Origin: Amoebophrya sp. A120
Taxonomy: Eukaryota; Protista; Dinoflagellata
Direction: 5' to 3'
Assembly: GCA_905178155.1 (NCBI GenBank)
Contig: CAJINV010000002.1
Span: 8,203,224 to 8,267,223 of the forward strand
DNA: 64,000 nucleotides
The notes below the pieces were generated by a model that saw only the letters and a program-made list of their open reading frames with translations, was not told the origin of the DNA and searched no databases. Of this stretch, positions 662-42,263 are shown one piece after another. The position numbers were made by a program, and so were the translations under genes. Numbering within the stretch: the stretch's first letter is position 1; every line of letters begins with the position of its first letter.

Positions 662-3600
662 ATGCCGAAAATCGCCCTCACCCGCGAGGACGGTCTGAAT
701 GACCAACTCGAGCAGGCCGTTCGAGCGCACTACATGAAGCACGTGTCGGTGTTCGATGACCACATTTCGTATGAGGAGCTCCCGGGTGTCGAGCAGATCA
801 AGGGCCCGGACTTCCAGCGGCTGGCCCGGCTCTGGGATAAGGAAGAGTTCGACTGCTGCTGCCTGCTTGGGACGGAAGCGGCCAAGATCTACGTGGACCA
901 GTGCAAGCACTTCGACTACGCGAAGTTGGTGTGCGTGGGCAAGGGCACACTGGAAGTCTTGCAGAAGGAGAGGAGGAGCAGCAACGTGGTGACGCTGCCG
1001 GACAAGGCCACCGCCGACGGCACCGGGTTAGCGGACCACTTGCCCCTGGCAGTCGGCACCCGCCTGCTGCTGCTCTGTTCGGTGCAGCAGAAAGACGAAT
1101 GTACTTCTTATTCTTGAAGATGTGACGAGGTCCGATAGTTGCTTCGGAATATTATTCGGAGGACGAGCGCTATCTAGAGAGATCACTTTGTACTTCAGGG
1201 TGAGGAAGTGCAGCTTTTTGTTGATGCTGAATAACATAGAAAGGTGCCGTTCTACTTCGCAATCATTTGTTTACATCGTGAACAAGTAGAAGAGTTTACA
1301 CACACTACAGGCAAATCCACTTTAGAGCAGCGGGGTTTCGAGACCACGGTGTTTCAGGTGTATTCCACCCATATCAAATGCAAAAGTGTCTGGGTCTGGA
1401 AGAATAATGCTGTTTTTGCATGACACAGAAGGTCTGGCATGGAAGCTCCAGCATCACAGGTTTGGAGAAGCGTTCACAATGCCGAATCCGCATGACAAAC
1501 CCCTGACTTTTGTGACAGAAAGCGGGCAACTTTTGCTGCCTATGCATGAGAGATTTTTCTGTGTTCTGAAATGCGCATCACAAGTTTGCACTCTTCCAGA
1601 CCCAGACATTTTTGCATTTGATAACCCAGCCCCGCACGGAGCCCCCGACGACCTTCGACTTTTCGAAAGTGGACATCTGGACCTTCGGCAGCGCCTCGGC
1701 CGTGAAGGGCGTCGCGCAATGGAAGACGGCCAACGTGAAGGTCGCGATTTGCGTGAACCTGACCACCGCGAAAACGGCACAACAGCTGCTGCCCGCGAAA
1801 CTGGAGGACGGCAGCGAACTGAAGATCGAGTGTGCGGACAAATCCGGTGTGAAATCCTGGGCCGCGAAGGTGGTGGACTTCCTGAAAAATGGGCCGAGCA
1901 AAGAACAGAAGGACTTCGCGGCCGAGAAGGACAAAGAAGCAGCAGACCACCACCTCCCGGCGAAGAGTAGCGGAGCAGCGACGAGTAAAGCAAGCGCAAC
2001 GACGCCGAACAAAGAGAAGAAGGATATGGCATTCTCAAACATTTGTGTTGAATCATCGCTGTATTTTTACGCAGAATCTGAATCACTCTTCACTTCTAAC
2101 ACGAGGACCCTCCACACGATCCAACTGCTTCTATGCATGACAAGTTCTTGACGCGCTAGAGTAGAGCATGGAACGAATCCGCAATCTCAATCTGTAAAGC
2201 AAGACGCGCAATCGCAAAAATAAAAACCCTTTCACGACCTACTATTTTGCCGTGCGGTGCTTGCAATACAAAATCATGTGCCCTATGGGTCGCGTTTGTG
2301 GTTTCGGTCGGTTTAGCATTACAAAATCATGTAACAGCGATCAACGTAATTTTTGAGAACGTCATCAGCGATGTTCTACTCGCGGGAACAAGCTCCTCCT
2401 CCTCTTCGAGGCCGGGGACCGCGGGAGCCAGGGGGTATGAACTGCAAAAATATCGTACCCGTATAAATGCATTACAAATTTCCTCAGCGTGAGAACTGGA
2501 ATTTGTCATGCTTTTTTACTTTAAGGCCAAGATTTGTAATGCATAAAAGCAATTAGTACGAGTGCGATACTTTTGCAATTCATAGGGGTAGTCCCGGGAC
2601 GAAACGCGGGCAGTACGAGGACCCGCTGGCCGCGTTTTTGGCGTCGACCGGCAGTGGATCCTCAGCTTCGAAATCGAAGGCGGCATCTGCGGAGAAGAAA
2701 GTAGATCCCCTGGGGAACTTGACCTTCGGCGGCGAGAGCGCGTCCGCGAAGAAGAAATTGGTAAGCGCTGATCATGGCGCCGCTGCGACAGGAGCTGGCG
2801 TGGCGGAAGCAAAGCCGGCGACAACGAGTACTTCTACGCCCGGAGCAGGAAATAAAGCTACGGCTGCACTAGAAAGCGGCGCTCCTGAGATAACTTCTGC
2901 CGCAGCAAAAATACAAGACTCCACAACCGTGGGACTATCCACCGCTGGCGGAGAGGACATAAGCAGTAAAAAGCCATCGCTGGGGGCGGAAAAGCAGGCC
3001 ATTCCGGAAAAGCCGCCGGAGCAATCAGTTGCGGGGCAATTAGCCCAATCTTCTGGTGCAGCGGCTTCATCTTCACAACAGTTCTCCTTTTTCTTTCCTA
3101 CGGGTCCGAAGGCTGCAGCGCCCGTCGCAGCGGTGCCGGAGCAGATCGTGGAGGAAGCCATCGTGGATGACCGCAGTCGGGCAAGCACCAAGGAGCCTGC
3201 CGTGGAAGGTGGCAGAGGTGGAATCGCTGGGGGAACCACACCGGCGAAGGCAAAAAGCAAGGCGAAAGCTCCTGGCACGGCAGCGAGCTCCAGTACTGCA
3301 GCCGGACGAGCTGTTGCATCATCATCTTCGAGACCAGCTTCCGCGTCAACAAGGCCTTCCAGCAGTTCTGCGTCGAATCACGCCAGGAACCTCCAAACTG
3401 CGAACAAACAAGCAGGGGCGGCCAAGGCAAAGGCAGCGAGCACTACTCCACCTGCGTACAAGATGATTTCGAGCGAAACGATATCCTGAGTAAAAACGTC
3501 CCCACACCATAGTCAAGATGGGGATTTTGCAACGCAAACCTAGGAGTTTTGGGAGTCACGCATGACAAGTTTCAGTCCGTAAGGTAGTGCAAGTTAGCAA

Positions 3601-5299
3601 GGAAAGCCGCATCACAAATCGACCTGCTGATCCTGTTCACAGCATCACAAATTCCAAAACACGACTGGAAATGGTTCTCATGGGGATGCGCATCACAAAT
3701 GTCTTTGTCATTGCAAATCTGCATTACAACTCTGGTGTGGGTACGTTTTTACACAGGATAAACGAGCAGGACGGCAAACGTGAAAGACAAGTCGATAGCA
3801 GACCTGGCAGCCGGGAAAAACAAAGCTGCAACTACGTCGTCTTCCATATGGCGTTCTCAAGCGTTCCATTCTCAACTGTTACATGAATTTGTGATGCAAG
3901 AATAGGAGAAGCAAAAGAAGGGAGCTTGCACCTCTCGCATTACAAATTTGGCACAGATTTTAGTGCTGTTTAGCCCTTCTAAAATTTGTCATGCGAAGTA
4001 GCTTCATCGTATGGATGCTGATGCGCATTTTGCATGACAAATCATGTAACAGTTGAGAGTGTAACGTTTGAGAGCTCCATATTCCACCTCCGCGAAAGCC
4101 AGCCGGCCGCTCACTCCGGCCTCCGGGAAAGGAGCAAGAACGCGCGCGGCGCCATCGGCGACCGCTGCTAGCGGCTCCACCGGTGCTGGAAAAGCATCTT
4201 CGAGTGCAACTAGTACGGGCACAAGGAGTGCTGCCGGAGCGGGCGGCTCCGGGGCGGATCTGGGAGGAGGTTTGCCCCTACTACTGTTGTTGCAGAATAG
4301 AGAAATTAGAATTACGAAATGCGAAACCGAATTTCATGTACCTGTAGAAGTATGGTGATGGTGGCGTGCTGAGATGCAGATGCTATCTTTCTTTGAGTAA
4401 ACCTACCTACCTGTTATCAACACTATAAACTTATGAAAAATCGACACTTCCCCAGCTCAACAACATCACGCTGGAGCTGGAGGACCCGGTCACTCCGGTC
4501 CGACGTGGCAGGAAGTGAACCAGCTCTGGGAGGTGATTGGTAAATGGGAGTCGAGTTTTTCCGACCTCAAGAAGCTGCACGAAACGGAGGTTGGGGATTT
4601 GAAAAAGCAGCTGCAGCTTGCGTTGAGCGGCGACGGAGACTTTTTGGGTAGGAACATGAACGGCGACGAGCTCGGCAGCCCCAGTCGCGTGGACCGAGGT
4701 GGGCGGCTGCTAGAGAAAAGCGGCGCGGCTTTCGGAGCGTCCGTGCTGGACCAAAAGGCCGACGATGTGCTGGTGTCGAGCTCGTTTGCCACGTTGGACG
4801 CCGCGATATGAGAGTGCACATCTCTCCCTTTCCCTCATGTGTGACGCAACGCGCCAAACTCTTTTAAGCCTGTCTCTGCATGACAATTTCAGGAGGGCCA
4901 AACACAAACTGCACTCCAGTCCAGGCCTGGATTTGTCATGCAGAGGCTGCAGCATTTCCATGTGGATTTGCATTTTCGTTTTCCAGGCGCTATGTAAAAA
5001 TGGTAGAAATTATGCCCCCTCAAATGGGAGAGAGGGGAAGTTTGCTTCCATACGCGAAGGACGAGTACCAAAAACTTCGCCGGGAGTACGAGGAGTTCAG
5101 GAAAGCGAAGTTCGTGGAAATCGAGTTGCTGCACAACAAACTCGCGACCGGAGGTGGAGGCGTGGGTGGGATTGCTGGTACTAGTGCAACTACATCTTTG
5201 ATACCCACACAGCACGCGGCCGAAGTCGCGCAACTCCGAGCGGAAAACGCGCAGTTGGTGAAACAGGTAGAGTACTTCACACTCTATGCGACGGTCTGA
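662..5299 (+). CDS. hemD: Uroporphyrinogen-III synthase (HemD) domain plus a long low-complexity/coiled-coil tail; multi-exon, about 926 aa if it ends at 5299
   Basis: Motifs: IALTREDGLN, VCVGKGT, PDKATA, TLEQRGFETTVFQVYST, FGSASAV. Inferred exons: 662-1100, 1311-1371, 1629-2024, 2372-2435, 2590-3481, 3766-3846, 4087-4269, 4456-4806, 4986-5299. They total 2781 nt and join in frame. GT-AG introns at 1101-1310 and 4270-4455; the other six are TIR elements. The 3' end is uncertain (possible donor at 5267). Confidence 0.8.
1372..1623. mobile_element. Introner-like TIR element, family A (reverse orientation)
   Basis: 32-bp TIR tatcaaatgcaaaagtgtctgggtctggaaga / tcttccagacccagacatttttgcatttgata. 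TSD ACCCA at 1367-1371 and 1624-1628. Removal gives VYSTQPRTE in frame. Confidence 0.95.
2025..2366. mobile_element. Degenerate introner-like element, family B-like
   Basis: Ends tatggcattctcaaa ... tttgagaacgtcatc. Decayed TSD AAGGA/AGCGA. Internal gcatgacaag and gcattacaaa. Removal gives KKDVLLAG in frame. Confidence 0.7.
2436..2584. mobile_element. Introner-like TIR element, family C
   Basis: TIR tatgaactgcaaaaatatcgtacccgta / tacgagtgcgatacttttgcaattcata. TSD GGGGG/GGGGT. Removal gives ARGSPGTK in frame. Confidence 0.9.
3482..3760. mobile_element. Introner-like TIR element, family D
   Basis: TIR tatcctgagtaaaaacgtccccacacca / tggtgtgggtacgtttttacacaggata. TSD AACGA at 3477-3481 and 3761-3765. 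Removal gives SETSRTAN in frame. Confidence 0.95.
3847..4081. mobile_element. Introner-like TIR element, family B (235 bp)
   Basis: About 40-bp TIR tatggcgttctcaa...ctcaactgttacatga / tcatgtaacagttgag...ttgagagctccata. TSD TTCCA. Removal gives TSSSTSAK. Same length as, and similar to, 29403-29637. Confidence 0.95.
4807..4980. mobile_element. Strongly decayed introner-like element
   Basis: Starts tatgagagtgcacatc with a weak partner gatttgcattttcgtt. Internal tgcatgacaat ... atttgtcatgca. Removing 4807-4985 gives DAARRYVK in frame. TSD is no longer recognisable. Confidence 0.55.
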
Positions 5300-6047
5300 G
5301 AAACAAAGGCAGGAAAGAACGCGGAGAAGAACAAGGTGCCGCAGCGATGAGTAGTGGCTCTCGAAAGTCGTGCTGTCCTCTCTTCTTGTCTCCTCCACGC
5401 GTTGCTGTCTTTCGCGGTACATTATCATTGCGATGCACTCCTCATCGCTGCTCGAAAACTCATACACAGCGCTGAATAAAGCAACAAAAGCAAAAGAAAT
5501 GCCGGAGAGGTTTTGATACCTCTTTGGTCCGATGCTTTGCAACGCAGTAAGAGTTCGCTCTTGACATACAAAAATTTCTGATCACATAATTCATAACCGG
5601 AGCTGTTCTGAAGAAGGTGGAGCCAAGAACGTCGCAACGAGCTACATTCGGTCCTCCTACTAGTTCAGGAGAAGTTATTGTCAGTCGTTCGATTAACTGG
5701 TCAATCGCATGCTACCTTGCACAATACCAATACCACTTCGGTGTTTTTTATCGTGTTCGTATGGAGCAGAATCTGCAAGTCGCAAGTCGTTGATGCCCAA
5801 AATGCCACGAGACGCTAAAAGAAGCTCGTGACTTTGTGATTTTGACCCGACCAGGATCCATTCGGAAGTGATGGCAGAACGTATAAGTCTTACGTTGTAA
5901 CCGTGAAAAATTCTTGCCGCTTATTTTCGTGAGCCTCCGAAATTCCTTGTTATTTCCGGGTCATTCATAGAAAAACAGAAAGACAAAGAAAATAAACGAC
6001 AACCCAAACGACTCCAGACCCGGAAAAACTTTCGCTACTTATCTATC

Positions 6048-7898
6048 ATGTCCACTGCAACTACGGCGATTCGTAGCAAGCAGTGGCGCTCGTCTTTGCG
6101 CCGCACAACTGCAGCAGGACACCATACAACTTCGTCGCCTTTACCGAACCCGTGGAAGCTGAATGTCGATTTCAAGGTCGTGACCCGGGAATCCGGGGCG
6201 ACCCGAACCGACATCCCGATTTTTACCGCACGGAAAAACGCGATCGCAATGGAGAAGAGCGACGACCGCAACGAGGAAGTTCGGCGGGAGTTCGTGCCGG
6301 GCGCGCCCGGGGTCTTTCTGTTGTCAAATTTGTTGTCCGACCACGAGTGTGAGCAGCTGGTCGCGCTGTCCGAGCAGATGGGCTACTGCGAGGATGCGCC
6401 GGTGAGCTTGTCCCGGGAGATTCGGCAGAACGACAACTGCGTCTGGATCGCGGACCAGGAGAGCTTAAATCGCGTGATTTTCGACCGCTGCAAGCACTTA
6501 CTGCCAGAATACAGTGTGACGACAAGTGGGCCGGCGCGCGGTCCGCAGAAAGACGACCCAATGTGGAGAAGCCGAGAGTTTTACGGCGAAAATTCTAGTG
6601 CAAAGGAGCAAGCAGATCCCGATAATGAAGATGAGAACTACCTCGTCGAACCAAGCAAGAAACTGCTAAAGATCGGTCCGGTTACGGGGCTTAACCAACG
6701 CTGGCGACTTTATCGGTACAACACAAAGGACATTTTTCGGCCGCACACCGACGGCTCTTGGCCCGGGTCGGCGCTTTCGAGTGCAGACTTCGAGCGGGAT
6801 GACCAGACGCTGGTACAGGATTTTTACCATGGGCGACAGCATTCCCTGCTGACGTTTTTGATGTATTTGAACGACGACTGCGAGGGCGGAGAAACCACGT
6901 TCTACTACGACAGCAGCGACTCGTTGTACCGGGACGTTCTCCTGAACAGCAGTTCGCTTTCTCTTGCTTCTGGGATGACAATGCAAGAGGACCCAACTCT
7001 GAAGAGTTTGAACGAAGAGGAAGCAGAGCTTCAAGCTGAGCTGCAAGCGGAAGCCGCTGGTAGTAGTACAGCCGCAACTTCTACTTCTCTAGGGACTCCA
7101 AGCGCGGCCGGAAGTAGTGGGACAACCAGCACGTCCTCGCGGACAAAACTGGTGAGAATTTCGGTGAAGCCGAAAAAGGGCGCCGCGCTGGTTTTCTGGC
7201 ACGGGCAGCACCCGCTGTCACCGTTGCACGAGGGGTCGCGGGTGGAAACGGGGAGGAAGTACGTGATCCGGACAGACGTGCTGTACTCGACGGTGGGCGA
7301 CGGTTCCGCAGCAGCGATGAGCCATTGGCCGCAATTTTTCCAGAAGCACGGCCGCACGCAGTCCATCGCGGAGAAGGCCACGCGCGTCCTGCACGCGATC
7401 TCTTCCTCGCAGAAGGCGGTGGGAAACCAACCCCGGATCGGAAATTTGTCCGCTCCGGACTCGCGGATCAACCAGAGAGTCTGCCTGCTCCTCTTTCTCG
7501 ACGACGCGGAAATCGATCCCGCGGAGAAGCAACGCCTGGCGATGTTGGTTGCCGAATATTCGCAGCAATTTGCGGATGACGAGGAGGACGGGTCCTCGTC
7601 GTGTTCTTACCCGGTGTACTGTGCGGTCAGCAGTCAGGGGGCGGTTGGGCAGATACGAGAGTTGATCTCGTCGGGAAATAAAGACGATACAGGTAGTAGT
7701 GCAACAGCCACAAAAAGTGCTGATTCTTTACTCCGCTTTGCCCTGCTCGACATACCGAATGCGCGGTGCGGAATATGCACGACGAAAGAGCCATTTCAGT
7801 CCTGCCAGGAGTTGCAGAAGTGGCTCACTGACTGCAGAAACGCGTTCGAGACAGACGTGAACCGCACAGAACGTGTTGAGGTGCGAAAACTTCAATGA
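6048..7898 (+). CDS. 2OG-Fe(II) oxygenase, prolyl 4-hydroxylase-like, with a C-terminal extension
   Basis: Motifs: FRPHTDG (HxD), LTFLMYLNDDCEGGET, PKKGAALVF, PLHEG, GRKYVIRTDV. Confidence 0.9.
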   Translation: MSTATTAIRSKQWRSSLRRTTAAGHHTTSSPLPNPWKLNVDFKVVTRESGATRTDIPIFTARKNAIAMEKSDDRNEEVRREFVPGAPGVFLLSNLLSDHECEQLVALSEQMGYCEDAPVSLSREIRQNDNCVWIADQESLNRVIFDRCKHLLPEYSVTTSGPARGPQKDDPMWRSREFYGENSSAKEQADPDNEDENYLVEPSKKLLKIGPVTGLNQRWRLYRYNTKDIFRPHTDGSWPGSALSSADFERDDQTLVQDFYHGRQHSLLTFLMYLNDDCEGGETTFYYDSSDSLYRDVLLNSSSLSLASGMTMQEDPTLKSLNEEEAELQAELQAEAAGSSTAATSTSLGTPSAAGSSGTTSTSSRTKLVRISVKPKKGAALVFWHGQHPLSPLHEGSRVETGRKYVIRTDVLYSTVGDGSAAAMSHWPQFFQKHGRTQSIAEKATRVLHAISSSQKAVGNQPRIGNLSAPDSRINQRVCLLLFLDDAEIDPAEKQRLAMLVAEYSQQFADDEEDGSSSCSYPVYCAVSSQGAVGQIRELISSGNKDDTGSSATATKSADSLLRFALLDIPNARCGICTTKEPFQSCQELQKWLTDCRNAFETDVNRTERVEVRKLQ

Positions 7899-8357
7899 TA
7901 CAGGATCATGCGAGGAGCGTGGCTCCGGAAAAATTGCTTCGTTTCGACGAGGACCAAGGCATCTGCCTTTGTACTTAAGTATGTGTATGCCTCGTTGATG
8001 AGGTGCAAAAAATTCAGGATGATAAAAAGGCTTGCACTTCCAGTGATGTGTTCCACCAACGTTTTCCAAGTTCATACCTATGAACAGGCTTATTATTGCC
8101 TCCTGATCTTTGATCCGGATCCTGGCTGTGGCTGAGAGATCGATTTGTTTCTCCGAATTGATATTCTTCCGTTTGTGAGAGAGAGCGCAAAACCGGCTGC
8201 AACGCTCAGCGTCAGCCCGACAGAGGATCGTCCCGAGAGGCTCAACGCAGCACCATAGAGCCGCAGTTTTTCTTTCTGTTTCGCTAGCTACTTGAACAGA
8301 TTATGTTTCCACCTAGTATCCCGCAGAAGTCAAGAACAGCGTCGTGAGTGTCGAATT

Positions 8358-10814: not shown

Positions 10815-12120
10815 CTAGGAGCTCACTTTTGACGACCACGGAGGGGTTCGTTGTGATCCACCGAACTCATCATCTCCAGCTTGTGCCTCATGCCGTTTTC
10901 CTTGCAAAAAGGGATGCAGCATGTGACTGGCAGGAGCGGTGTGTAAGTGCAAAACTTACCTGCAAGAAGTTGTTGAACCGGAGGTAAAAAACGCGATGAA
11001 AGTCAAGTACCTTCTAGATGTGTTTCTATGCATCAATTCCTGTTCTTTCAGTTGATGATTTTGCATCTGAAAACAAGCATAAAGTTTTTGCCTGAAGCGA
11101 CTTGAGGATTTCTGGTGGTGCAGTCGTGACAAAAGAAGCATAAAAAGCACCCTGAATGTCCTGTTCTTGATTATTACAAATAAAATCCACCTTGTTATTT
11201 ATTCGATCTCCAACGGTAGGGAAAGCTTCGGTGATTGAGCGAGGTTGTGGGATGCCTAAGTCCTCCGAAAAAAAAAAATTATCGAGTTCCAAAATTTCTG
11301 AAGTGCAGGATCCACATATCGAATTCGCCAGAAATTCCAATGCAAATCGGTTTTCACCACTTGGAAGTATAAGATCGAAGTCAGTTGATCGGTGGTGTTT
11401 TCATTGCTAGGGAGGCGCAATGATTGGTACCAGCAATGCCTTGCTTTCATGTGCTTGTAACCGATCTGGATCTTCATGTTGCAGCCAGGACCCTAATCAT
11501 ATAGAAACTTCCAACAGCAAAGGCACACAAATTTCAATTATTACGCTATCAAGCGCACAAAAAGCGAATCTTAACCCACTGAACAACAATTTTTGGAAGA
11601 ACAACTCCCTCGTTCTTTTTGAAAACATCAACCCCAACCTGTTATTTCATTGCATTGATTGCCACCAAAAGCCGACGTTCGTGCAATTTTTTGCTAGCTA
11701 ATTGTACTTGTCTTGTGATAAACATAAACCCTCAGACTCAAACTGAATTTGTTCAAGCAAGTACAACATCGCCCTTGTAGTTGCAAACCCAGAAACTTTC
11801 TGACAAGAAAGGTCGATCATTCTTGCTTTAGCTGCAAAGACAAAAAAGACCACAAGCCCATATTATTTGTCTGATCTGGTCCCGCCTAGAATTTGTTTTA
11901 TTTCGACCAGTTGCATACTAACTTACGAATTGTAGCATTTTTTTTAGGTGCGATATCTTTGGATTGCTCATAAGAATGAAAATGCAGAGAAGTCTCGGCT
12001 GCAACACTATCGTCGGCCGCCGCGCCGCGAGCCTTGCTCTCCTTGCGGTGTGGTCGTCCTCCGTGGAGGTGTGCGAGGGTGTGCTTAAGGCGCTTCAAAG
12101 AAGTGATAGGATTGTCGATG

Positions 12121-22466: not shown

Positions 22467-25023
22467 ATGGATATTGATGATGCTGTGGGGTGGGAGCACT
22501 ACAAAGACGGAAAGTTCTGGCACCATGCGGTGGCGGGAGCGTCGGCTGGGGTGTGCGAGCACCTCATCATGTACCCCTTTGACACCATCAAGGTACTTTA
22601 GTACTTCGTTTATCTTTATAGAGCTACTTCTAGTCGTTGTCGTATGATATCAGCTTCAACGGCGTGTAAAAGATGACAAAAGAGAACACAAGCTTCCGAT
22701 TCGTGCCCGTGCCTCCTCCCAGAAATGTTTTGTGTTACCGACTGTCCCTGAAAGCTTGTAATTTCATTGTGTGCACAGAAACATTTACGGCACGAGGATG
22801 ATGTACGGAACGCAAGTGTAGTTTCATTCATAATCACAACAGACGAACCTTCAAGCGGAGCGACCAAAGCAATTTTCCTCTCCTTCGGGAGGAGGACCTC
22901 CGGGAGGACCGCCAGGATCATCCTGTGCCGCCGCCTGCCCGACTAAAATAAACCCTGGCACCAGCTCCTGCACATCAGCAACGAAAGCAGGGGCGGCGAC
23001 TTCCAGCAGCGCATCCTCGTCGTGTGCACCAGCAGCGGGGACCTCGTCCGCGTCAACGGCCAGCAGCCGAGTGAACTTCAATGCAACTACTACAGGAGCA
23101 GCAGGTAGTGGCGCAGCAGCGACTGCGCCGTCGTCCACGCTCTCTAGCACCATAACCCGCGGGAACTGCTCGCCCTTCATGACCAGTCTTCAGCAGCGCA
23201 CGGCGACCACAGGAATTATTCCCACCACCGCGGTCGCGAGCTCCAGCACCGCGGGAGGTACAAGAACAGGAGCTGCTCTTGGTGCCAACCCCGGGTCCCG
23301 GTCGGTGTACAGTAACACGTTTGCCGCGTTTCGCGCGATCAAGAATGAGGCCGGCTGGAGCGGCTTCTACCGCGGCGTGTCGGCGATGGCGCTGGGCTGC
23401 GTACCGGCGCACATCGGCTACTTCTGCGCCTACGAGACAGTCAAGGGCTTTGGGAGGAGTAGCAACAGTTCTAGGGACCAGACGAACAACGCAAGGAATT
23501 ACAGCAGCGCGGATAAAGATAACCCGGGTGGACATAAAGACCAACATCTTCCAAACGGCCAGAACAATAGTGCAAGTTCCTCTTCCCCCTACTCCCCCAC
23601 CGCATTTTTGGCCAGTAACCCCTGGCTGATTGGCATGGGCGCGGGCTGCGCCGCGAGCTTCGCGCACGATCTGATCCTAACCCCGCTCGACGTCGCGAAG
23701 CAGCGGATGCAGCTGCGGGCGGGGAGCCACACCCGGTCCTGCGCGGAGTGCGTGAAGCACGTCGTGAAGACCGAGGGCTATCTGGCGCTGTATCGGTCTT
23801 TCCCTGTCACGCTGTTCAGCAACGTCCCTTTTTCCGCCATTCTCGTAGGGTGCAACGAGCAGCTGAAGGAGCAGTTCGACGTGAACACCACCTGCCAGAT
23901 ATCACAAGGAAAAATCCCCCCTCCCCATATCAAACGGAAGTTTCTGATGCTGGATTTGCGTATACAAATCAGGTTTGTCTTGCAGTAGAGGACTGCAGGC
24001 CCCTGCCAAGCCTGAGTAGAGAGGTTTTGGCCTAGGCGCTTAGCATGAGAAACGTCTATGCTGTAGGCCCCACAGCATCACAAACCGCCTGCATAATGCG
24101 GCAGAGCCTGCGGAGTTGTCTTCTTGCAAGACAGACGTGATTTGTGGTGTCAAATCAGCAAGACAAATTTTCGGAAACATACCTTTTCGATATGGGGAGC
24201 GGGGATCTTTCCTCTCAATACCAGACGTGGGACGAGATGCAAACCAAACTGCCCATGTACTTTACGCTCGCCGGCGTCAGCAGCGGCGTGGCCGCCGTGT
24301 GCACCCAGCCCCTGGACGTGATAAAAACCAGGATCCAAACGCAAACCTGCCTGTTGAACAAAACCTCGGTAAGGTACCACGGCATCATCGACGCGGCGCG
24401 GACCATCTACGCGGAAGAGGGACTCAGGGCGTTCTTCAGGGTACAGTGTTACTTGCCTGCTTAAATACTACTTACACGATTTGAAAGCGTAGGAGTTCTG
24501 TTTAGCGTCGTCAGCACTTGACGTTTTCCTTGCGCATTTCTATGTGTCGTGTGTGCGTATTTGCAAGATAAAAGCGTATGAATAGTATATCGAAATAAAG
24601 ATAAAATCCTATTCTGAATTGTGAATGACAATGATTTGAAGATGTTTCTGAACCAAAACAGGGCTCCGCCGCTCGGGCGCTGGTCGTGATTCCCAGCTGC
24701 GCGATTTCATGGGCGAGTTACGAAACCATCAAGAGTTTTCTATCAAATATAAAAATGTCTGGGTCTGGAAGATTGCAACTTGTGATGCTGCGTCTGCATT
24801 ATGCAAAAATCTGTATTGCATGAACAGCAAAAGAGGTCTTTGGCCCCGGCGAGAGGGCATTTCTCATGCGGTATAGGCATCAGAAAGCCCTCACAAGATC
24901 TGTGATGCTAGGGCATGCATCGCAGACATCAGGAGTCATGCAAAATGTGCATGACAAACCTTGCATCCTTCCAGACCCAGACATTTTTACATTTGATACT
25001 TTCTCGTCCGCAACGACTTCTAA
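22467..25023 (+). CDS. Mitochondrial carrier, mitoferrin (Mrs3/4-like)
   Basis: Motifs: AGASAGVCEHLIMYPFDTIK, GCVPAHIGYF, AHDLILTPLDVAKQRMQL, QPLDVIKTRIQTQ, IPSCAISWASYE. Exons 22467-22592, 22843-23899, 24226-24440, 24662-24740, 25004-25023 (2 GT-AG introns and 2 TIR elements). Confidence 0.9.
23900..24220. mobile_element. Introner-like TIR element, family E
   Basis: TIR tatcacaaggaaaaatcccccctccccatatc / gatatggggagcggggatctttcctctcaata. TSD CCAGA. Removal gives TTCQTWDE. Confidence 0.92.
24741..24998. mobile_element. Introner-like TIR element, family A
   Basis: TIR tatcaaatataaaaatgtctgggtctggaag / cttccagacccagacatttttacatttgata. TSD TTTTC/CTTTC. Removal gives IKSFLVRNDF*. Confidence 0.93.
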
Positions 25024-27133: not shown

Positions 27134-30100
27134 ATGTTCCACCAGCCCGGCGCCCCACACTATGCGTCTTCGCCCCCCTTGGCGATCGAGCGTCTGTCCG
27201 GAAACCCGATTTTGGTTCGCTGCGCTCCACCGACGACCGCAGCTGTGCCAGAAGCAACCGCAAGTATCAATCCGTCCCAAAATGCCGACGCTGCCTACGA
27301 GTGTTTGAGTCCGGTGGAGCACCGGGTGAGGGCGGAGGAAGCGGCGGCAGACACGACCATTTCGGCGTCGCACCTGCAGAACCTGCAATCCATTACGCAG
27401 GAAAATTTCAGCAACTTCACGTTCGAGCCTGAGCAGCGGTTTCTGCCCAGTACTAGTTTTGGAACTACGGGAGGTTTTGAAAATTATGGTAGTGCCGACA
27501 ACTACTATGAAGGGCAGCTGGCGAACAACACCGTTTTCCTCGAGGAGCCCAACTCGTCCTCCCCGTCGGGTTCTACTTCCCGAACAGGCGTTACCACCAT
27601 CCGCAGATTGCGTCGCCGGCTCCGGGCGTTCCTCGCGAAGCAGGAGGCGTTTCGGCCGGTCCCAGACAAGGTTCTGGTGCTGATCCATGCACCCAAGGGG
27701 TTCGGCGGGGCGGGGAGTGGCCCGGAAGAGGACAGTTACATGGACGACAATTACTACCCGGAGGACGAGAACAACTTCAACGAGGACGACTTCGACGAGG
27801 ACATGCCCGATGCCTGCGATTCCAACGACCTTTCGCGCGAACAGTCCTCGCGCGCGGTCGACTTCCGAGCGATGTTTGGCCTCGGCGGAGAACAAGAAGA
27901 CCCGGCGGCTATTAACAACAAAAATGGCGCAGCAAGTGCAGGTCAAAAGCAAAACCAAAGCCACCGCGGGGGTGGTTCTACGTTTGTCTACGATCCGACG
28001 CCCCTGGGTTTCGACAACCAGACGACCAATGCGCGAGCAGTCGGAGCAGGACACGTGCATGGACAACCACCAATGAACCGAGTTCCACACCATAATCGGG
28101 GACCACAGCACCAAATACCCCCTTCGCAGCCCGGTCTTGGCCAGCCGCCGCAGTTACGGATGCGGGTTATTCCAAGGCAATACCACCAAGAGGTCTTTGC
28201 GAAAACGGCTATTTTGCTGGAGAACACGCAGCATATCGAGATCAACGTCATCAATAAAAAGTTTCTGTTTCCCAATTCCTTCGACCTTGTTTACGACACC
28301 AAGGAAGATGTTGTGTGGCTCACGGAAGAACAGGACGGGGACAGTTCACATCAGGACGACGCGCAGAATAAAGTTGATGATCGTGATCCTCAGGACCAGA
28401 CGGGCGAAGGTGCAGCTGTTGCCGAAGGCAAAGCAATAAATCCAGAACCTATCAAGGAACTTCCCATCCACGAGCTGCAGCTGGTTCTCCGGTCTTTTCC
28501 GGATCTGCACGTAAGAAAAATCTATCAAATGTAAAAATGTCTGGGTCTGGAAGAATCCAACTTGTCATGCTGATTTTGGATTGTAAAAAAATCTGTATTG
28601 CTTGAGCAGCAAAGAGAGTCCAAGTCTTGCTACAAGGAAAGAGCATTTGTCATGCGGTATAGGCATCAGGAAGCCCTCACAAAATCTGTGATGCTAGGGC
28701 ATGCATCACAGACATCAGGAGCCACGCAAAATGTGCATGACAAACCTGGCAATCTTCCAGACCCAGACATTTTTACATTTGATAAAATGGTCGAGCAGAT
28801 GAAGGACGTGATCGATATTGGTGGCAGACTGCAGTTACCAAGTGCAAATATGTCTGGGTCTGGAAAAATTGGAATCTGTATTGCCTGTCTTGCACTCCTA
28901 TAAAATCTGTATTGCGTGACCGACAAAAGCGCGAATTCTTCGTCATGCAAAAACGCTGTTTCTCATGCGCATTACACATGAGGAAGCGTCCTGATTTTTT
29001 GTCATGCTTGGCTGCTCCCAGGAGTATGCTCAGTCATCGCCACTTAGCATCACAAGTTTCCATACCCAAACATATTTGCATTTGATAGCAGTTGATCCGG
29101 CGAAAGTCGCATTCTGTCGCCGACTGGGAGTCGGCCATTTACCAAGCCAGCTTGGAGGAGTTGAACAGTGGTGAGTGGGTGATGCAAAATTTGGCGCACC
29201 TCGTTTCCCCCTCCTCTACCTCCGGGATGCTGGATAATTCTAGCGGTGCTGGTAAGGAAGTCGAACAGGAGCCAGACCGCGAGCGTAGCAGCGACGCTGC
29301 GCAGCCTTTCACGGACGCGCGGATCGTCCGTCTGGAGCAGAACAAGTCGGACGATCAGCACGGGCGGTTTCTGTCCTGCAACCCGAACCCGAAGTACCTG
29401 AATATGGCGTTCTCAACTGTTACATTCTCAACTGTTACATGAATTTGTGATGCAAGAAGAGCGAAAGTAAAAGGGCGGACCTTGCAACTCTAGCATCACA
29501 AGTTTTGCACAGATTTCCATCCTGTTTAGCCCTTCGGAGATTTGTCATGCGCAGCCGCTTGGTCGTGTGGTTGCTTATGGCAATTTTGCATGACAAATCA
29601 TGTAACAGTTGAGAATGTAACATTTGAGAACGCCATACTGAAGGGGCATTTTCCGAGCAATAAATCCGCGCTGCAGAACCACCCGATCTACAACGCAAAC
29701 ATGAACGCGACCTACATCAAGTCTCTGCAGGACCAGCAGAACAACAAGGAGCCGTCCTTGCTGATGGTGTTGCTGGACCTGATTTTCCGGTTGTACCAAA
29801 AGTACCACGCCGAGCCCATCACGGAGGAGTGGCGCGTGGCGCTGGACCGCCACATTGTGGAGTGCCAGTGCGTGATTCTGCTGTTGCTCGACACGCCCAT
29901 GTTTAAGGACCTGGGTTGTAATACCTCAAACAACCGAAACGGCGGGGCGGGAACAGCAACAGGGTCGTCGAACAACCAGAGGCCGGCCGCTCCGAAGACC
30001 GAGTCGCCACTGCACGAGCTCTTGCGTATGTACTACCTTTTCTCCCGGAGTACGAGCAACTTCCCCGGGTCTGAAAAGTACCGGAGTTTGCGGTATTTCG

Positions 30101-32607: not shown

Positions 32608-35403
32608 AGATTTTGGGATGTTGTCGGGAAGATTAAAAGACAAAAAGGCTCTGCTGCTGAAAGAGAGCTAGTACTGTGTCAAGTATGATTGATTCTCTTA
32701 CTTTAGAAGTGCCTCCATATTATTGATAGACAGGGAAACGCGTTTATAGTTGTAGCCTCGAATCGCGATGAAGACATTCTTCTTGATCCTGAAAGTTTGT
32801 GGAAGTGTGAAGTAAAAAGAAGTATGTGATATTCTGTTTGAAGCTTCAAAGAGATCGCGAACAGGATCTACTTACACCAGCTGCACCGAAGGAAAATTTT
32901 CGCTGCTCCTGACCGCCACACCATAGATACGTGTAGGACATCGGGACGCACTGATGAAACGCGTTTGGATACTATGCGCACTTCTGTTCGATATCTAGCT
33001 CTGTGAGTCGTGCCTGCGCGTTTTTCTTTTGGGAAGACACGTAAAAAGTTTTGAGCTCGTTTTTCCGAATAGCTCGCGCGCCGCGTTCGCCGGGCCAGCG
33101 CCATCCGTTGCGGTCGGCCAACCTACGCACAAGGCCGCCGGCCTACAGGTACAGGCTGCAGCCAGGAGAGGGCCCAGCCCGAGCAAGTCGCGCGCGACGC
33201 GCTTCCCGTGATGATCTGCTTGATGGCGAAGCACGGAGATCCCACGATGCAGAAGCGCCTCGGTTTGTTGGTAAAGGGTGGCCATATCGAGCCGCCTGCT
33301 GGCATTCCGTCACGTATGAGAGTGGGAGCTGTGGCGTCGGCGATAACTTTCACGAGGAAAAGCCGCGCCCCCGCGTGCGCGCTGCACTGGCGCGGCTGCC
33401 ATGCCCGCAACATTGCCGCGCGGCGTCAGCCTATCTGTGGGCTCCCCGGATGGCTTTTGTGCGTAGCCTTGTAGATGCGAGCGTCAGCGCCGGGCCCCGC
33501 GGCGGCAAATTGGCCCGGAAGAGTGTGGCGGCTTCGCCGGCGGGGCGCGTTCCGATCCGGGGGGCTGGCGGGCCAGGTTTACGGCGCCGCCCGCCGCAAG
33601 GCGCCGCGCGCCTTCGCAGTGCATAGCCCTGCCCCGCCCCTGTTGCGCGATCGCCGGGGGGGCAAACACGCTACAAGACCCTGCAGGCCCCCCGTGCACG
33701 CCGCAGCTCTCTCTGCTGCAACAAGGCGGGGGGCTGCCTTTCCAGCCGGGCCCCCCTGGTGGTGCGTGGCGCCGAATGGGGAGGCATGAATGGCGGAGGC
33801 GGAGCCGGCGGGCTGGCCAGATCCATCGTGCGCGCGCCGGTGGAGGGTGGCGAGCAGTCCATAGGGGTTGGGGGCATGTTTTGGGGCGCTTTTTCCGCCC
33901 GCTTGGTCGGTGGTTTGCCGCTCGGCCCCCGGTGAGCGAGGCTGCCGGCCCTCCCGCAGAAGAGCAGCCCCCCCGGCGGCGGCGGCGGCGCAGGGGGCGG
34001 GCGTCGCGAGATCGTGGGGGGGCGGCGCGGGCGGCTGCCTGACGGTGGAAAATAGGCCCCGGCGGGTTTTGCGGCGGCGCCGCCCTGCCTCCCCCTGCGC
34101 CCCGGCGGGGCACGGGCGCCCGGTGGCGCGCGGCCCGGCGCCTTAGTCGTGTGGCCGTAGGTATTTCGCCGGTGTGGAGTGGGTGCGCGCATACTTCAGC
34201 AAGTGGCCCCGCATTCCCCGGCGGCCGGGCCATCCATGGCGCGCAGCTCCTCGCTGCCCAGGACTGCGCAGGCGGCCGCGCCCACATCGATCCTTCCACC
34301 ACATGAAAAGGTGTCCGCGGGCGGCAAGATTCTGGGAGGACAAAGACGCGCGAGAATTTCATCGCGGTGGGCAGCGCAGCAGCCTGCAGCGTCTACCCCC
34401 CCAAAGAGACCAGGGCTGTGTCGGCAGCTGTGCCATGGCCCGGGCTTTGAGCCGCCGGCGCTGATTTCGATCGAGCGACCGAGCCAGCGCCCCCGGCCGG
34501 GGGTGAGTGTGCTTGCGCGCGCCGGCCCCGCGCCCGTTGCCTGTTTATCTAATTGCAGCCTGGCGTGTTGTGTGGGGCGGTGGGGCTCTCTGCCCCGCGG
34601 GGCGGTTTCATACATATATCGCGCGCCTAAAGGCGCCCCACTGCCACCGCCTTTTTTTCATTCGTGCGCCGGCGTTCTCCCAGCGAGCGGCTGCGCACAC
34701 AGCCTGCCTGCGCGCGCTGCTTGATTCGGCGCGCATGCATCTTGCATTATGCAAAGTGGGAAGGGCGGCTGCGGGCAAGGGTGTGCGTGAGTGTGGCGAA
34801 GCTGCCCATTCCACAGTGTGTGCCCTTTCTTTGGTTTCGGCCTGGAGATGTCCAGAATGTATTGCGTTGTGGAGGGGGCGCATTGTTTTCACGCAACCCA
34901 GTGAGATAGACCCAGGCCGTCTAGCTTGGTTGAGCATGTGTATTTTCGCAGCTGGCGGCCTCGTGCATGAGTCTAAATGAAGCGACTCACTCAAATTCTC
35001 CGAGAAGCAAGTATGTTCTTTAGTTTTGTGGCCCTTGAGGATCCAGGGTGTCTTTTCTCTGAGGACCAGTTCGTAATGAGTGGCGAAAGGAGATATGCCC
35101 GCGGCAAAAAGAGCGCGATGCCAACGGCTAGTACAGCATCTACTCTAGAGCAGACTCCAGATTTCCTAGCTTTTTCTTAGTTCAAGGAGAGCAGTCCCCT
35201 ATGTCATGCGTGACAGAGACCACAGATACGTGGAAGTAGTATGCGAATCGCTTCTCGTTTCTTCCTGCAAGCAAAAGCGACAGCGGTGAGGAATGTAAGC
35301 GCCGGATTAGATTTCGAACTAGAAGTATTTTTAAAAACAACTATTAGCAAGTCGACTATGTGCTCAATTTGAAAACAATAAAACGTAGAGCAGCAGACAC
35401 ACA

Positions 35404-36750: not shown

Positions 36751-36909
36751 TTTCGATTTAGTTAGTAGCAAGAATGCTGCGATATAGCGATACCCATAGA
36801 TAACTCCGGTCATCTTGACAATTTTTTTCGAAAGCCGACGAATGTATGATTTGCTGTTAGATGGGACGTGCAGCGGTAAAAGTAATTGTAATATCTTTTC
36901 AGTCAACGG

Positions 36910-39900
36910 CAAACGAACTCGTGGCAGCGGGCAGCACCTTCCGCAAAAGGTTCCGGCACCGGTACACCTTTACTGGGACATTTGTGGGGGGGCGCGCGAA
37001 GCGTGAATACGATCATGTCTTCGTACGCTACAGAGATCGGGGTCTGTGCAGAGCATACCATGTTACCGACCAGACGCACAAGGAATCTGACCACAAACTG
37101 GTGACGATGCGGCTGGAAGGAAACGCGGCACGGGTTCCGCGCGCGAGGGAGCAGCTAGGCAAGCAACTGATCCGGCAGCAAGGCGAGGCGCTAAAGATAG
37201 AGGAGAAGTTGCAAGCCGTCTACACAGTGGACAAGCTGGAGAAAATAGCCGGTGGGGGGACCACACCAGCAACAGCAGTGGAAATTTGGGATGACTTCGA
37301 GCAAACCATGAAGCCACTGCTGCGGGAGCTGGAGGAGGAGTGGAAGAAGAACAAGACAGAAACGAGGAAAAAGCCCTGGATCGCAGACCGCACCTGGGAG
37401 ACCATCCAGATGCGGAAGAAGCTGAGGGAGAGCGGAAAACTCACGAAGCAGTGCGCGGGAAGGCTGCGCAGGCAGATCAACCGAGAGGTGCGGGAGGACA
37501 AGGAGCAGTGGCTTCGCGAGAAGCTGGAGCAGCTGAAGAAGGCGGATAGCAGTGGCAACGCAAGAACGGTATATGAAACAGTGCGGCAGATAGCGGGCCG
37601 CGCTCGGGCCAGGGCTCAGCAGAGCCTCCCGGGCGGGGAGGAGCCACACCTTGCGTTCTGGAAGAGCATCCTGGGCCAGGACCGACCAGACGCGGGGGAA
37701 GACCTGAAAGCGACGAAGGCGTGGAAGAAGTGCGAGCAACTCCTGTATGAGACCCCTCCCCGACCCGTGTGGACCACAGAAACAACAGGGGCCCCAACAG
37801 ACGGCGAAATCGACCAAGCGGCTAAGGAGCTGAAAAAAGGCAAAAGCCACGCCGGAGACTTCCCGGCCGAATTCTTCACCCACTCGGAGACCGCGCGCAA
37901 GGTTCTCCGCAGTGTGGTGCGGAAGATCTTTGAAGGGGAGGAAGTACCGCAGTCGTGGTTAGACGCGACAATTGCACTGTTGCACAAAAGCGGGCCACGA
38001 GCACAGCCGCAAAACTACCGCCCCGTGGCGCTCTTGCACTACGGGGAAAAATTAGTGTCCCTCCTGATACTAAAGCGGGTCCGCAAGTCCGCATACAGCT
38101 ACGTGAACAAGAAGCAAAAGGGGTCCATACAGGGGTTGAGTTGCCGCCACGCAGTCTTCCAGTTACTGCGAGACATGGAGACAGCCATCCGCAACGGCGA
38201 GACGCGAATCTATGACTTCATTGATTTTCAGAAGGCATATGATTCGCTCGACTGGGAGCGGCTCAATTCCGTCATCCGCTGGCAGGGATTCCCGCCAGAA
38301 CTTGCAGAGCTTGTCCGACGGATGTACCGCCGGGCGACTTTCTGCCTCAAGCTGGGACCGGGAAAACAAAGCAGCGCCGCCGAACAGCGGTCCGGGATAC
38401 GCCAGGGAAGCAGCCTATCGCCCCTCATTTTTATCCTCGTGTTAAATTTTGCGTTGTGCGCACTAGAGGAAACGATGACAGATGACGGGCTTTGGGTGGG
38501 ATGCAGAGTAGACCCAGCGTACCTGTCTTGGCTGGGGTTCGTGGATGACTTGGTGATCAGGTCAAATACGAAGGTGGAGGCGCAGCGCGTCCTCCTACAG
38601 CTGCAGGCAGCGTGCAGATTTGTGGGCCTGGAACTAAACGCGAAAAAAACGGAGGCGATGACGATAGGGCTGCCGCCGACGAAAAAGAACAACGAAGACG
38701 CCAAAAAGGAAAGAATCCGCACCGACGAGGCTAGCGGCGAGCGGTGGGGGTGGTCCATCGAGTGGGACGGGGTGGACCTCGTGCCACACCTGGCGGAAGC
38801 AGCACGACGCAAGCAGGCCGCGCTTCCGAAGGTGGGGAAAGTAACGCACTTAGTAGCCTGGGACGACGGAAAGTACAGCCTGTGCCTGTACAAGCGCACA
38901 GGCTGGGTGGAGCTGGACGGAAGGGAGACGCTGCGCTTTGTCCGCATGGGCAAAGTGCGATCTGTTTTGGAGGAAAAAAACATCCATGTGTGCCCAGTGT
39001 GCCAAGATGTCCTTCCGGACGAACGGGCACTACGGGGGCACATGGCAACGGGCTTCTGCAGAACGGCCATGACGGAGCGCGAAGAGAGACAGCTCCGGGT
39101 AGGCAGATACATAGAGGAAAAGGCCAAGGCACAGCGCGCCACAGTGCTTGTGCCGGCGGACCTAAAAACAGCAGATGGGAGCGAGATAAAAACAGTGCCT
39201 TCCTTCAAGTATTTGGGCACAGAAATAGCAAGCAACGCCAGCACCACCAAAGAAGTCGAAAGGCGGACGGGGATAGCAACAGCAACGACGCAGCAACTCC
39301 GAAAAATCTGGGCAGATAAAGGGCTCCCGCGGGAGCTGAAGGCGGAACTTTACACCTCGTTGCGCAGCTCGGTAGCGCTGTACAATAGTGAGTGTTGGGT
39401 CCCGCACGAGCACGACCTCAAGGTCTTGCGTAACTTCCAGATGCAGACACTGAAAACAGTGACGGGGGAGCGAAGGGAGTGGCAGCGGCAGCAGGAAAGG
39501 CAGGAGGAGCAGAACGCAGAGGGGGGGCCGGTAGACGAGGAAGCAGAATACACCAGCCGCATCGAGTTATGCAAAAGAGCAGGCATACTCGATATAGAGA
39601 CGATGCTACAGGAGAAGCGGGTAGCATGGGTTGCCCATGCATTCCGCGACACAACAGAAGCCTCAGGGTGGTGGATAGCAAACGAGATAAAGGCGAAAAC
39701 ACCATGGGGCAGGCTGGTGGAGCAAGACCTGCAGCACTTTGGCTTCGATGCCGCACAGATGGCGCAGCAGCCGCCAGACGCAGCGGCAGTGAAGGAAGCA
39801 ATGCGGCAAAAAAGAAAAGTGGACACGAGCAGAAGAAACAGGCCCAAGCAAACAAGGACAGCAACCGAGAAGACCGAGAAAATGCGCGAGGAGCAGCGCA

Positions 39901-40249
39901 AGAGAATACAGCAACAGCAAGAAGCGGAAAGGGGGCGAGCGGAACTAATTCAAACGATCAGCGGCAAGAGCTGGGTGCGTTTACCCGGCCAAAGACGGGA
40001 AGTCTGGCGTCTAGAAGAAAGCGACCAGGTGGTGTTTGAAGCAGACAGCACGGATTTTTGCGAAAACACAGGAAGAGAGATAGTGTATGTCTGCGGGGTC
40101 TCCTTTTACAAAGGCCAAGATAACACTTGGCACGCAGAGTGAGTGACTCTCCTGTCACTCCGCACACAGCAGTACTGGGTGCCCGTCCACTCATTAGAAT
40201 GAGAAAAGATAACGTTTATCCCGGACACGCACAAATATGATGATGATGA
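36910..40249 (+). mobile_element. 5'-truncated non-LTR retrotransposon (APE-RT, RTE-like)
   Basis: 12-bp TSD TTCAGTCAACGG at 36898-36909 and 40250-40261. (TGA)n tail. The ORF ending at 40142 has the end of an APE domain (YDHVF, SDHKLV) and RT motifs NYRPVALL, FIDFQKAYDS, GIRQGSSLSPLIF, FVDD, FKYLG. Confidence 0.95.
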
Positions 40250-40695: not shown

Positions 40696-42263
40696 ATGAT
40701 GCAAATTTTCCTGAGGTCCGGAAGCGTATCAGCTCGACCGGGGACTGTCTACATCAGGTCGGGACCATTCAGAGGACTGCCGCTGGTCTCATCGACTGTT
40801 GAAAAAAGCTACGGAGTTGTTTTGCCGCGTTCCTCAAATAAACTGACTGCTGCGCAGCTACCAATTCCACAAGGAGCGCAGCACGGAACAAGTAGGCCAC
40901 ACAGCTCCACGACGGCGACAAGCAGCTCCTCATCTTCGTCCACTTCGGGCCGATCGGAATTTGATGACGATTTGTTGAACTTCGACAGGGACAGCCAAAA
41001 AAAGCAACGAAACCGCATACCATCTGTTTTCCGCTTTCTCGGCATGGAGGATAAAATTGGAGTGTTTGTTGAGAAAAGCAGGATGCTGTTCCCAGGGACG
41101 AGTGTTTTCACATCGCGAATTTTTCAAGTACTTGCATCGAGCAGAGGAAGTGCAGGAACTTCTACGTCTTCAACCTCCTCCGGTTTCACGGCCCTGCACC
41201 AAACCTCGGGGTCCCTCGATGCCAACAAAATCTTCGCGCGACGGTTGATCCTGTACGGTGGCGCGATTTGGGTTTTCTCCCTCGGCGCGCTATTTTTCAT
41301 GGTCCCGTTCTTCAAACTGATGTGCCAATCCGGGGGCGATAACGGGGCCGCGAACCGGAACTTCGTCGGCCACAAAACGTACAACCATCTGGAGAAGGCC
41401 GAAGACCCGGTTTGTGCAAACCGATTGGTGAAGGTGAACTTCAACGGCACCGTCGCGACCAACCTGGACTGGGAGTTCCAGCCGCAGCAGCATTCGCTCT
41501 ACGTCGCGGTGGGCGAAACCGCGTTGGCGTTTTTCCGGGCCAAAAACATCGGCACCGAGCCGGTCATCGGAACCTCCACTTACGCGATTTTTCCGCCAGA
41601 GTGCGGGTTGTTCTTCAACAAAATCCAGTGCTTCTGCTTCGACGAGCAGCTGGTGAACCCGGGCGAAGAGGTGGACTTGCCGATTTTGTTCTACATCGAC
41701 CCGGACTTCGCCTACGACAACCGCGTTGCCAAAGTGGAGGAGTGCGAGTTGAGCTATCTGTTCATGCCGAGCGAGTCGAAGGTGCCGACCGATTACGCGG
41801 AACTGCAGGAAATTATTACAATGAAAAATGCCCCCACCCCCCCCACTTGGGGGCATTTGTATTGCAAACCTTTCCAAATGAAACATTCGCCCTCTTGCAT
41901 CTATCAGCATCACAGATTTCCGATCGTGAATAGCAGAAATTTGCATTGCAAAAGATCCCAGCAAGACCGGCGCTTGTCATGCAAGCGATGCGACACACAC
42001 CGAGACTCTGCATCAGAAAGGTTCATACTCCTGTCATGTATGACAAAAAGTTTTCATTTGGAAACTTTGCATCACAACTTTTTGCAACTTTGGGGGTGGG
42101 GGCATTTTTCCTCGCGATAGAAATGCGGGAATTCCAGTTGGAAAAAATGAAGGCGCGGGAGGAGGAAATTGGGAGGCAAAACAAGGTGGTTCCGAAGACG
42201 CTGGGAAATTTAAACAGTTTGGAAGACATCAAAAATCATCCTGCGATTGCGGCAGCAATTTGA
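40696..42263 (+). CDS. COX11: Cytochrome c oxidase assembly protein COX11/CtaG
   Basis: TM helix ending VPFFKLMCQ, then WEFQPQQ, GETALAFF, FNKIQCFCFDEQ, LPILFYIDPDF. Exons 40696-41813 and 42125-42263. Confidence 0.95.
41814..42119. mobile_element. Introner-like TIR element, related to family E
   Basis: TIR tattacaatgaaaaatgcccccaccccc / gggggtgggggcatttttcctcgcgata. TSD GAAAT. Removal gives LQEMREFQ. Confidence 0.93.

Follow-up and report, generated by a model that had tools for sequence, protein, structure and literature searches.

Introner elements of the dinoflagellate Amoebophrya sp. A120 were described by Farhat et al. in 2021, with 1,954 families and 29,850 copies (PMC7789003). In the parts of that paper available to us, these introners are about 240 nt long, have non-canonical ends, form a hairpin, and carry an inverted-repeat motif in which TAT is followed by seven variable bases and then by three or more A; their direct repeats are 3-5 nt long, and the border position was left unknown. 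The same parts report that over 60% of A120 introns are non-canonical, and that A120 keeps U2, U4, U5, U6 and most spliceosomal proteins, with U1 undetected. In supplement sd07 of Gozashti 2025 (PMC12130899), of which 41 of the 58 A120 rows were compared, A120 families are mostly labeled "TIR DNA, unknown" (TIR, terminal inverted repeat), and family 38 is labeled "Ginger, 5-bp TSD, TA/TA Termini" (TSD, target site duplication). In this study, we analyzed a 64,000-bp stretch of the A120 contig CAJINV010000002.1 (the window), which holds 13 TAT...ATA elements, designated E1 to E13, inside reading frames. Mature RNA lacks the element together with five further nucleotides, and the pre-insertion coding sequence is restored. 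Since the system of this strain, TAT motif included, has been in print since 2021, our finding is a rediscovery. We add a modest point: if one fixed register is used, three imperfect duplications limit where the cut can lie.

Exonic elements removed together with five bases

All coordinates below refer to the window and its plus strand. Host gene 1 (662..5299) encodes a 902-aa protein with a HemD domain (PF02602) and has canonical GT-AG introns at 1101-1310 and 4270-4455. It carries six elements. E1 (1372-1623, or 1367..1628 with TSDs; 252 bp; TSD ACCCA on both sides; family 1) lies within the HemD domain, and E2 to E6 lie in the low-complexity tail. E2 (2025-2366, with flanks 2020..2371; 342 bp) is degenerate, with an ATC end and flanks AAGGA/AGCGA. 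The others are E3 (2436-2584, with flanks 2431..2589; 149 bp; GGGGG/GGGGT), E4 (3482-3760, with TSDs 3477..3765; 279 bp; AACGA), E5 (3847-4081, with TSDs 3842..4086; 235 bp; TTCCA), and E6 (4807-5052, with TSDs 4802..5057; 246 bp; CGCGA; weak TIR, 11/20). Host gene 2 (22467..25021), a mitochondrial carrier of 498 aa which we take to be a mitoferrin, has canonical GT-AG introns at 22593-22842 and 24441-24661. It holds E7 (23900-24220, with TSDs 23895..24225; 321 bp; CCAGA), with a Pfam Mito_carr match on either side, and E8 (24741-24998, with flanks 24736..25003; 258 bp; TTTTC/CTTTC). Three of the four canonical introns in the window genes start with GTAC. E9 (28523-28784, with flanks 28518..28789; 262 bp; AAATC/AAATG), E10 (28836-29087, with TSDs 28831..29092; 252 bp; TAC start; GCAGT), and E11 (29403-29637, with TSDs 29398..29642; 235 bp; CTGAA) follow. 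E12 (41814-42119, with TSDs 41809..42124; 306 bp; GAAAT) is positioned in the C-terminal tail of COX11, after its conserved domain. The initial annotation had stressed that essential-type genes are hit. HemD, carrier and COX11 genes do carry elements, but only E1 interrupts a conserved domain.

A strict scan required TA[TC]..[AG]TA ends, a TIR match of at least 14/20, a TSD match of at least 4/5 and a length of up to 400 bp. It recovered 10 of the 12 small elements claimed initially, whereas 25 Markov-shuffled windows yielded three hits together; E2 (ATC end, 3/5 duplication) and E6 (TIR 11/20) were missed by this filter, and window scans found all 12. When the scan was widened to 10 kb, 14 hits were obtained, against 0-4 per shuffle. 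Of the four extra hits, two are weak and probably due to chance, one is nested in E13, and one is E13 itself (54754-60907, with TSDs 54749..60912; 6,154 bp; TSD GAACA; TIR 20/20), a real foldback-like element of the same grammar that the earlier inventory had overlooked. Its arms are identical at 162 of 170 positions, and its interior consists of 108/216-bp and 256-bp tandem arrays, in which mirrored 108/216-bp repeat arms flank 15 copies of the 256-bp unit at 97% identity. Within an annotated intron, E13 thus combines a foldback structure with an expanding satellite. Two long open reading frames (ORFs) within it gave no Pfam match.

The proposal that one TAT...ATA grammar with a 5-bp TSD unites the elements holds broadly. 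TAT starts 12 of the 13 elements, AAA occupies positions 11-13 in nine, and the 5-bp TSD is exact at nine. The exceptions among the 12 small elements (149-342 bp) are the TAC start at 28836, the ATC end of 2025-2366 and four mismatched TSDs. Sequence identity reaches 86% between E8 and E9 and 83% between E5 and E11, and the depth of DNA runs over E1, E3, E4 and E5 is orders of magnitude above single copy. Strong hairpins were predicted for the two elements folded (z of -7.0 and -4.0), and Rfam gave no match anywhere in the window. The six sliding boundaries given earlier for 1372-1623 are correct, and none of the 12 small elements has a permitted register that reads GT-AG, GC-AG, GA-AG or AT-AC; E13 has one, AT-AC. 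All 13 elements lie inside reading frames (p ~3e-4, with ~54% of the non-repeat window coding by a rough ORF tally).

Removal was then read from four runs (X1 to X4), available as contigs only, from two samples of one study, with the RNA type guessed; the alignment covered window positions 400-12000 and 22400-30400. Since the GT-AG introns are missing from these contigs, they derive from mRNA. In 22400-30400, seven joints were found, two canonical and five at E7 to E11. The latter are 23894>24221 (E7, skip 326), 24736>25000 (E8, skip 263), 28516>28784 (E9, skip 267), 28830>29088 (E10, skip 257) and 29397>29638 (E11, skip 240), each equal to the element plus five bases; the E8 joint occurs in X1-X4 and the others in X1-X3. 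Among the matches listed, 4801 is joined to 5053 at E6 in X1 and X2 contigs, again element plus five. With E6, direct joints support six of the 13 elements, and contig arithmetic supports three. Between 1100 and 1624, X2 record 7 has 56 nt, the size of exon 1311-1366, which fits the removal of the GT-AG intron and of 1367-1623 (E1 plus five). In X1 record 3, positions 3475 and 4454 are separated by 268 nt, as expected if E4 plus five, E5 plus five and the GT-AG intron 4270-4455 have been removed. Support is one-sided for E2, where RNA pieces stop at 2022 in X1 and X2, and no joint was found for E3 among the matches listed for 400-12000. Coverage by a raw RNA run (X8) was limited to one TIR fragment and did not reach the genes. 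The carrier-gene RNA contig extends ~1.3 kb beyond the stop (25021-26370) and 1,431 nt before 22400; these extensions are long untranslated regions or merged neighbors, and the 3' part has no elements.

Such joints need not come from splicing. Reverse transcriptase could have switched template, and a hairpin with direct repeats is the classic setting for this; the RNA nature of the runs was guessed. Alternatively, the element could be excised from DNA or be absent from some alleles. We consider both very improbable. The main contig is of the joined form, with a depth of 41-154, and retention of the elements would truncate the 902-aa gene and others. E2 is joined despite a TSD identity of only 3/5. 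A DNA-type run (X6, record 20) has a single unbroken contig through E6, and the contig's retention of E6 indicates that removal does not occur at the DNA level.

Protein comparisons agree with the contigs. When element plus five is cut at all six sites, E3 included, host gene 1 gives the public protein P0122 exactly, and P0121 joins across E13 exactly at element plus five. Both proteins carry the label Amoebophrya sp. A120 and match the window at 100% identity; since the underlying gene models may have been built from the same reads, they do not count as independent of the RNA contigs. Two orthologs align over the E1 site without an indel. The COX11 relatives are dinoflagellate and perkinsid, and by eye the element-plus-five tail at E12 matches the ortholog P0001 without an indel. 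The initial annotation had argued that the frame is restored only when a TSD copy is also removed. This gave the right outcome, but the frame fixes the length only modulo 3. Host gene 1 encodes 193 aa when the element alone is removed, and 908, 902 and 896 aa when two, five and eight more bases are removed; the plus-two and plus-eight frames are also open in other host genes, and in COX11 the element-plus-four ORF is longer than the element-plus-five ORF. The removed length is element plus five, as fixed by RNA and orthologs, and the frame alone is insufficient. Precise, non-canonical excision of the element with one TSD copy, as first proposed, is thus what RNA contigs and public gene models both give. 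The outcomes named in advance as contrary to it did not appear in the contigs, which drop rare forms: no nearby GT/GC/GA-AG site is used, and flanking codons are intact.

Related loci and the position of the cut

Metagenome contigs were scanned with the family-1 end. At least 136 loci (411 kb) were found; full flanks were obtained for 80, all on JACKZZ01 contigs. Relatives of nine of the 13 window elements occur there, up to 97% identical. Among 212 TAT..ATA pairs with strong TIRs, selected without a TSD filter, the exact 5-bp repeat was present in 162 and a 4/5 match in 24 more; an exact 4-bp repeat occurred once and a 6-bp repeat never. The frequency of A at positions 11-13 of these elements was 0.86-0.93, and a crude clustering of the first 15 nt gave 18 groups. 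Related loci share sequence with the window only in the element, and no empty orthologous site was found among them. The family-1 TIR had no match in viral contigs. Seven longer candidates in the related loci (457-2,459 bp, one a duplicate) showed no similarity to the Copia element or the long interspersed nuclear element (LINE) of the window, and at least two of them (L039, L068) appear to pair the ends of separate elements by chance.

The coding context of the related elements was examined with a codon-position model trained on the window genes, a training set that included 77 wrong-frame codons. Element plus five was the best frame for 213 of 283 elements. Flanks were coding and stop-free for 240 of the 283, compared with 176 of 400 random positions, and had no coding signal for 23; many of these 23 appear to be near exon edges, and a few may be non-coding. 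The claim that the elements occur in coding sequence only thus stands for the window and is probably not absolute. Since the loci were picked around elements, these numbers are not a genome-wide count of exonic and intergenic copies. After 113 of the 283 were dropped for weak or conflicting coding signal, 170 elements were confidently oriented. The first TSD base falls on codon positions 1, 2 and 3 in 46, 51 and 73 of them (p 0.026), a bias in phase. Orientation relative to the gene was 52 vs 36 among 88 assignable elements (p 0.11), and 24 vs 20 in family 1.

As stated initially, the TSDs have no consensus: base composition at 145 perfect related TSDs hardly departs from background (the smallest of the five per-position p values, uncorrected, is 0.049). 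A preference for A at TSD position 5, seen in 8 of 13 window elements, was gone in these 145. Some flanking repeats are not 5 bp, namely L039 3329-3608 (8 bp), L092 76-330 (4 or 7 bp) and L107 301-570 (2 bp), and the 5-bp repeat of L002 2123-2341 has a 3-nt offset; the 8-bp, 2-bp and offset cases preserve the frame of a 5-bp removal. Nine elements lie within ~4 kb of L027 (1540-5626), and several of the exons between them are ~50-80 bp. The motif GCAT[CGT]ACA is present in 165 of the 170 oriented elements, at 12 per kb inside and 1.3 outside. A role as branch point was not supported, as the motif is sense-only in 29 elements, antisense-only in 33 and missing from E13. It resembles a repeat bound at the DNA level more than a branch site.

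Perfect duplications mask the cut site, and imperfect ones expose it. The E8 mRNA retains base 1 of the 5' TSD copy, so that the cut lies after position 1 or later. The E9 mRNA retains base 5 of the 3' copy, so that the cut lies after position 4 or earlier, and not at the TIR edge. For E2, P0122 is reproduced only by cuts after position 3, 4 or 5, and the RNA ends at 2022 agree. If a single register is used, these constraints would place the cut after TSD position 3 or 4. The intron would then be N-TAT...ATA-NNNN or NN-TAT...ATA-NNN, with neither cut at the TIR edge. Cases of TSD-mismatch polarity in related loci were too sparse to place the cut. The nine leading A120 dinucleotide pairs in the available part of Table S4 of Farhat 2021 have T second. 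This fits the register of 1 nt before TAT and 4 nt after ATA (1+4), and it was not counted, as aligner preference could explain it.

An ordinary spliceosome might instead choose the locally best register within each 5-bp duplication, which would make the choice harmless, since a perfect TSD gives an identical mRNA from any register. Splice positions are called variable in the available parts of Farhat et al. (PMC7789003). TSD mismatches were synonymous in 22 of 39 cases, where 26% is expected at random and ~41% if one copy is free (p ~0.035); this would suit use of both copies. We regard a variable register as improbable all the same. E8 and E9 show a single form in every covering run (contigs only), and three independent constraints overlap at offsets 3-4. 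Moreover, a GT-AG, GC-AG, GA-AG or AT-AC register is available at only 21 of the 145 perfect TSDs, compared with 19.7 at random sites, which is chance level.

Candidate machinery of insertion and removal

We propose that the A120 introner elements are non-coding TIR elements that insert into exons, are removed with five extra bases by a modified spliceosome reading the hairpin base, and are spread by an integrase-type transposase encoded elsewhere. We give this reading a probability of roughly 55%. A DDE transposase of the IS3EU, GingerRoot or Ginger2 kind would insert the element in either orientation, without site preference, and with a 5-bp duplication. In the pre-mRNA, the TIRs are predicted by folding to pair and to draw the ends together. 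Both orientations look alike, because TAT..ATA is its own reverse complement; E1 and the oppositely oriented E8 and E9 are all removed from RNA. Judged from the three imperfect TSDs and assuming one register, the cuts would fall 1 (or 2) nt before TAT and 4 (or 3) nt after ATA. With the 1+4 register, +2U and +3A of a donor-like N-TAT would come from the element, and +1G and the 3' AG would no longer be read. Catalysis would fall to the U2/U5/U6 core, with a hairpin-reading factor in place of U1.

The same cuts could be made by a structure-reading endonuclease and a ligase outside the spliceosome, with a fixed stagger at the hairpin base. This is a tentative alternative, which we hold less probable than the modified spliceosome but take seriously. 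It has precedents in tRNA-type splicing and in the proposal for euglenid nonconventional introns. It would suit the full strand symmetry, the lack of a branch-point or AG signal, and the 6.15-kb foldback E13, which is annotated as removed equally precisely. The fixed-spacer geometry is also like the Euglena code 5'-N3CDG...CH'GN5-6|R, as given in the part of that paper available (PMC12501133), and U1 was not detected in A120 in the available account (PMC7789003). Conversely, a modified major spliceosome is favored because canonical GT-AG introns share the same transcripts, because the U2/U4/U5/U6 core is reported as kept in A120, and because in the 1+4 register U and A fall at +2 and +3. In addition, the TIR-derived non-canonical introns of Fritillaria are reported to be spliceosomal, again from a partly available source (PMC11282704). 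In a more specific form, A120 would possess a second, non-spliceosomal machine that ignores boundary dinucleotides and cuts with a fixed stagger of 1 nt 5' and 4 nt 3' from the TAT/ATA hairpin base, with spacers that add up to the 5-bp duplication made by a single IS3EU/GingerRoot-like transposase. We think this rather unlikely. If true, whatever lies between such ends would be a seamless intron anywhere, in either orientation and at lengths of 149 bp to more than 6 kb.

The mobilizing superfamily was initially called not obvious, with Transib set aside. Transib termini are CAC..GTG, and the elements share its 5-bp TSD but end in TAT..ATA; Transib therefore remains set aside. Ginger elements have TGTNR termini with TSDs of 4 bp (Ginger1) or 4-5 bp (Ginger2/TDD), according to the part of the source seen (PMC2836005); TGTNR ends are lacking here, and a 5-bp TSD fits Ginger2/TDD only. 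IS3EU/GingerRoot elements have TA..TA ends and TSDs of usually 6 bp, as stated in the available part of PMC10045372. The TA..TA ends are found here, and an exact 6-bp TSD was found in none of the 212 related elements. The termini of the elements favor a transposase of the IS3EU/GingerRoot type over Transib, and the superfamily is less obscure than first stated, apart from TSD length.

Several points weigh against the modified spliceosome and the proposed transposase. The RNA evidence is limited to contigs of a single study with two samples, and these may be the source data of the gene models. The single register is drawn from three elements, and the synonymous excess weakly hints that the cut wobbles or that both copies are sometimes used. 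A spliceosome normally requires a branch-point and polypyrimidine signal, and no strand-biased signal of either kind was found in the 170 sense-oriented elements. For the transposase, IS3EU/GingerRoot TSDs are usually 6 bp, and Ginger ends are TGT. The E13 ORFs contain no transposase by Pfam, nothing similar to the Copia pol of the window occurs in the 411 kb of related loci, and the parts of Farhat et al. available report that no transposase was found in A120 (PMC7789003).

Imperfect TSDs are natural markers of the cut position. A fixed 1+4 register, together with orientation independence and tolerance of 6 kb, would define a substrate rule. Such a rule would tell a modified spliceosome apart from a novel nuclease-ligase system, and would explain the low cost of a transposon that invades exons. 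The wider question is how such a genome, where more than 60% of introns are non-canonical and U1 was not detected, splices them.

The window also contains two retroelements. A Copia-type long terminal repeat (LTR) element lies on the minus strand at 12121-18034, with 408-bp LTRs that are 99.8% identical. Its gag (16307-17389) and pol (12455-16306, RVT_2) share one frame with a single TGA between them, which suggests stop readthrough, and the pol ORF extends into the LTR. A non-LTR retroelement ORF on the plus strand (36861-40142; 1,093 aa; RVT_1) is apparently intact. Two GC-rich blocks (~33000-35150 and 44200-46400; 60-69% GC vs 51% for the window) contain ORFs that overlap in many frames, and no gene was identified there.

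Comparison with described introners and introns

The window elements are like the A120 introners of Farhat et al. in strain, in their TAT-N7-AAA ends and short direct repeats, in their removal without GT-AG, and in their grouping into families. They depart from that account in a uniform TSD of 5 bp, counted from TAT/ATA, and in the restriction of the cut to two registers. In the parts of the literature examined, we found neither the fixed register nor the orientation test nor the internal motif, some of which may be depicted in Fig. 3 or Figs S19-S25 of Farhat 2021. In the rows of Gozashti 2025 that were compared, family 25 has satellite-filled copies of up to 5.6 kb, which resemble E13. The automatic TSD calls there range from 2 to 6 bp and the origin of splice sites is assigned differently from family to family, and the comparison was made by description, not by family number (PMC12130899).

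Among transposons, IS3EU/GingerRoot share TA..TA ends and TIRs with the window elements, and Ginger2/TDD shares a TSD of 4-5 bp. Among introns, the euglenid nonconventional introns, as far as described in the available part of PMC12501133, have paired ends, TSD-like repeats and fixed spacers that are longer on the 3' side, as here. They differ in the CDG/CH'G motif, in spacers of 3 and 5-6 nt, in a purine at the exon start and in belonging to an unrelated lineage; the window elements lack the euglenid signature and have TAT/ATA with spacers that sum to 5. The introns of Fritillaria borealis, in the part of PMC11282704 available, derive from miniature inverted-repeat transposable elements with TIR and TSD and are non-GT-AG, as in A120. 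They differ in having defined AG-AC/AG-AT ends and a target preference, whereas the elements described here have no boundary consensus.

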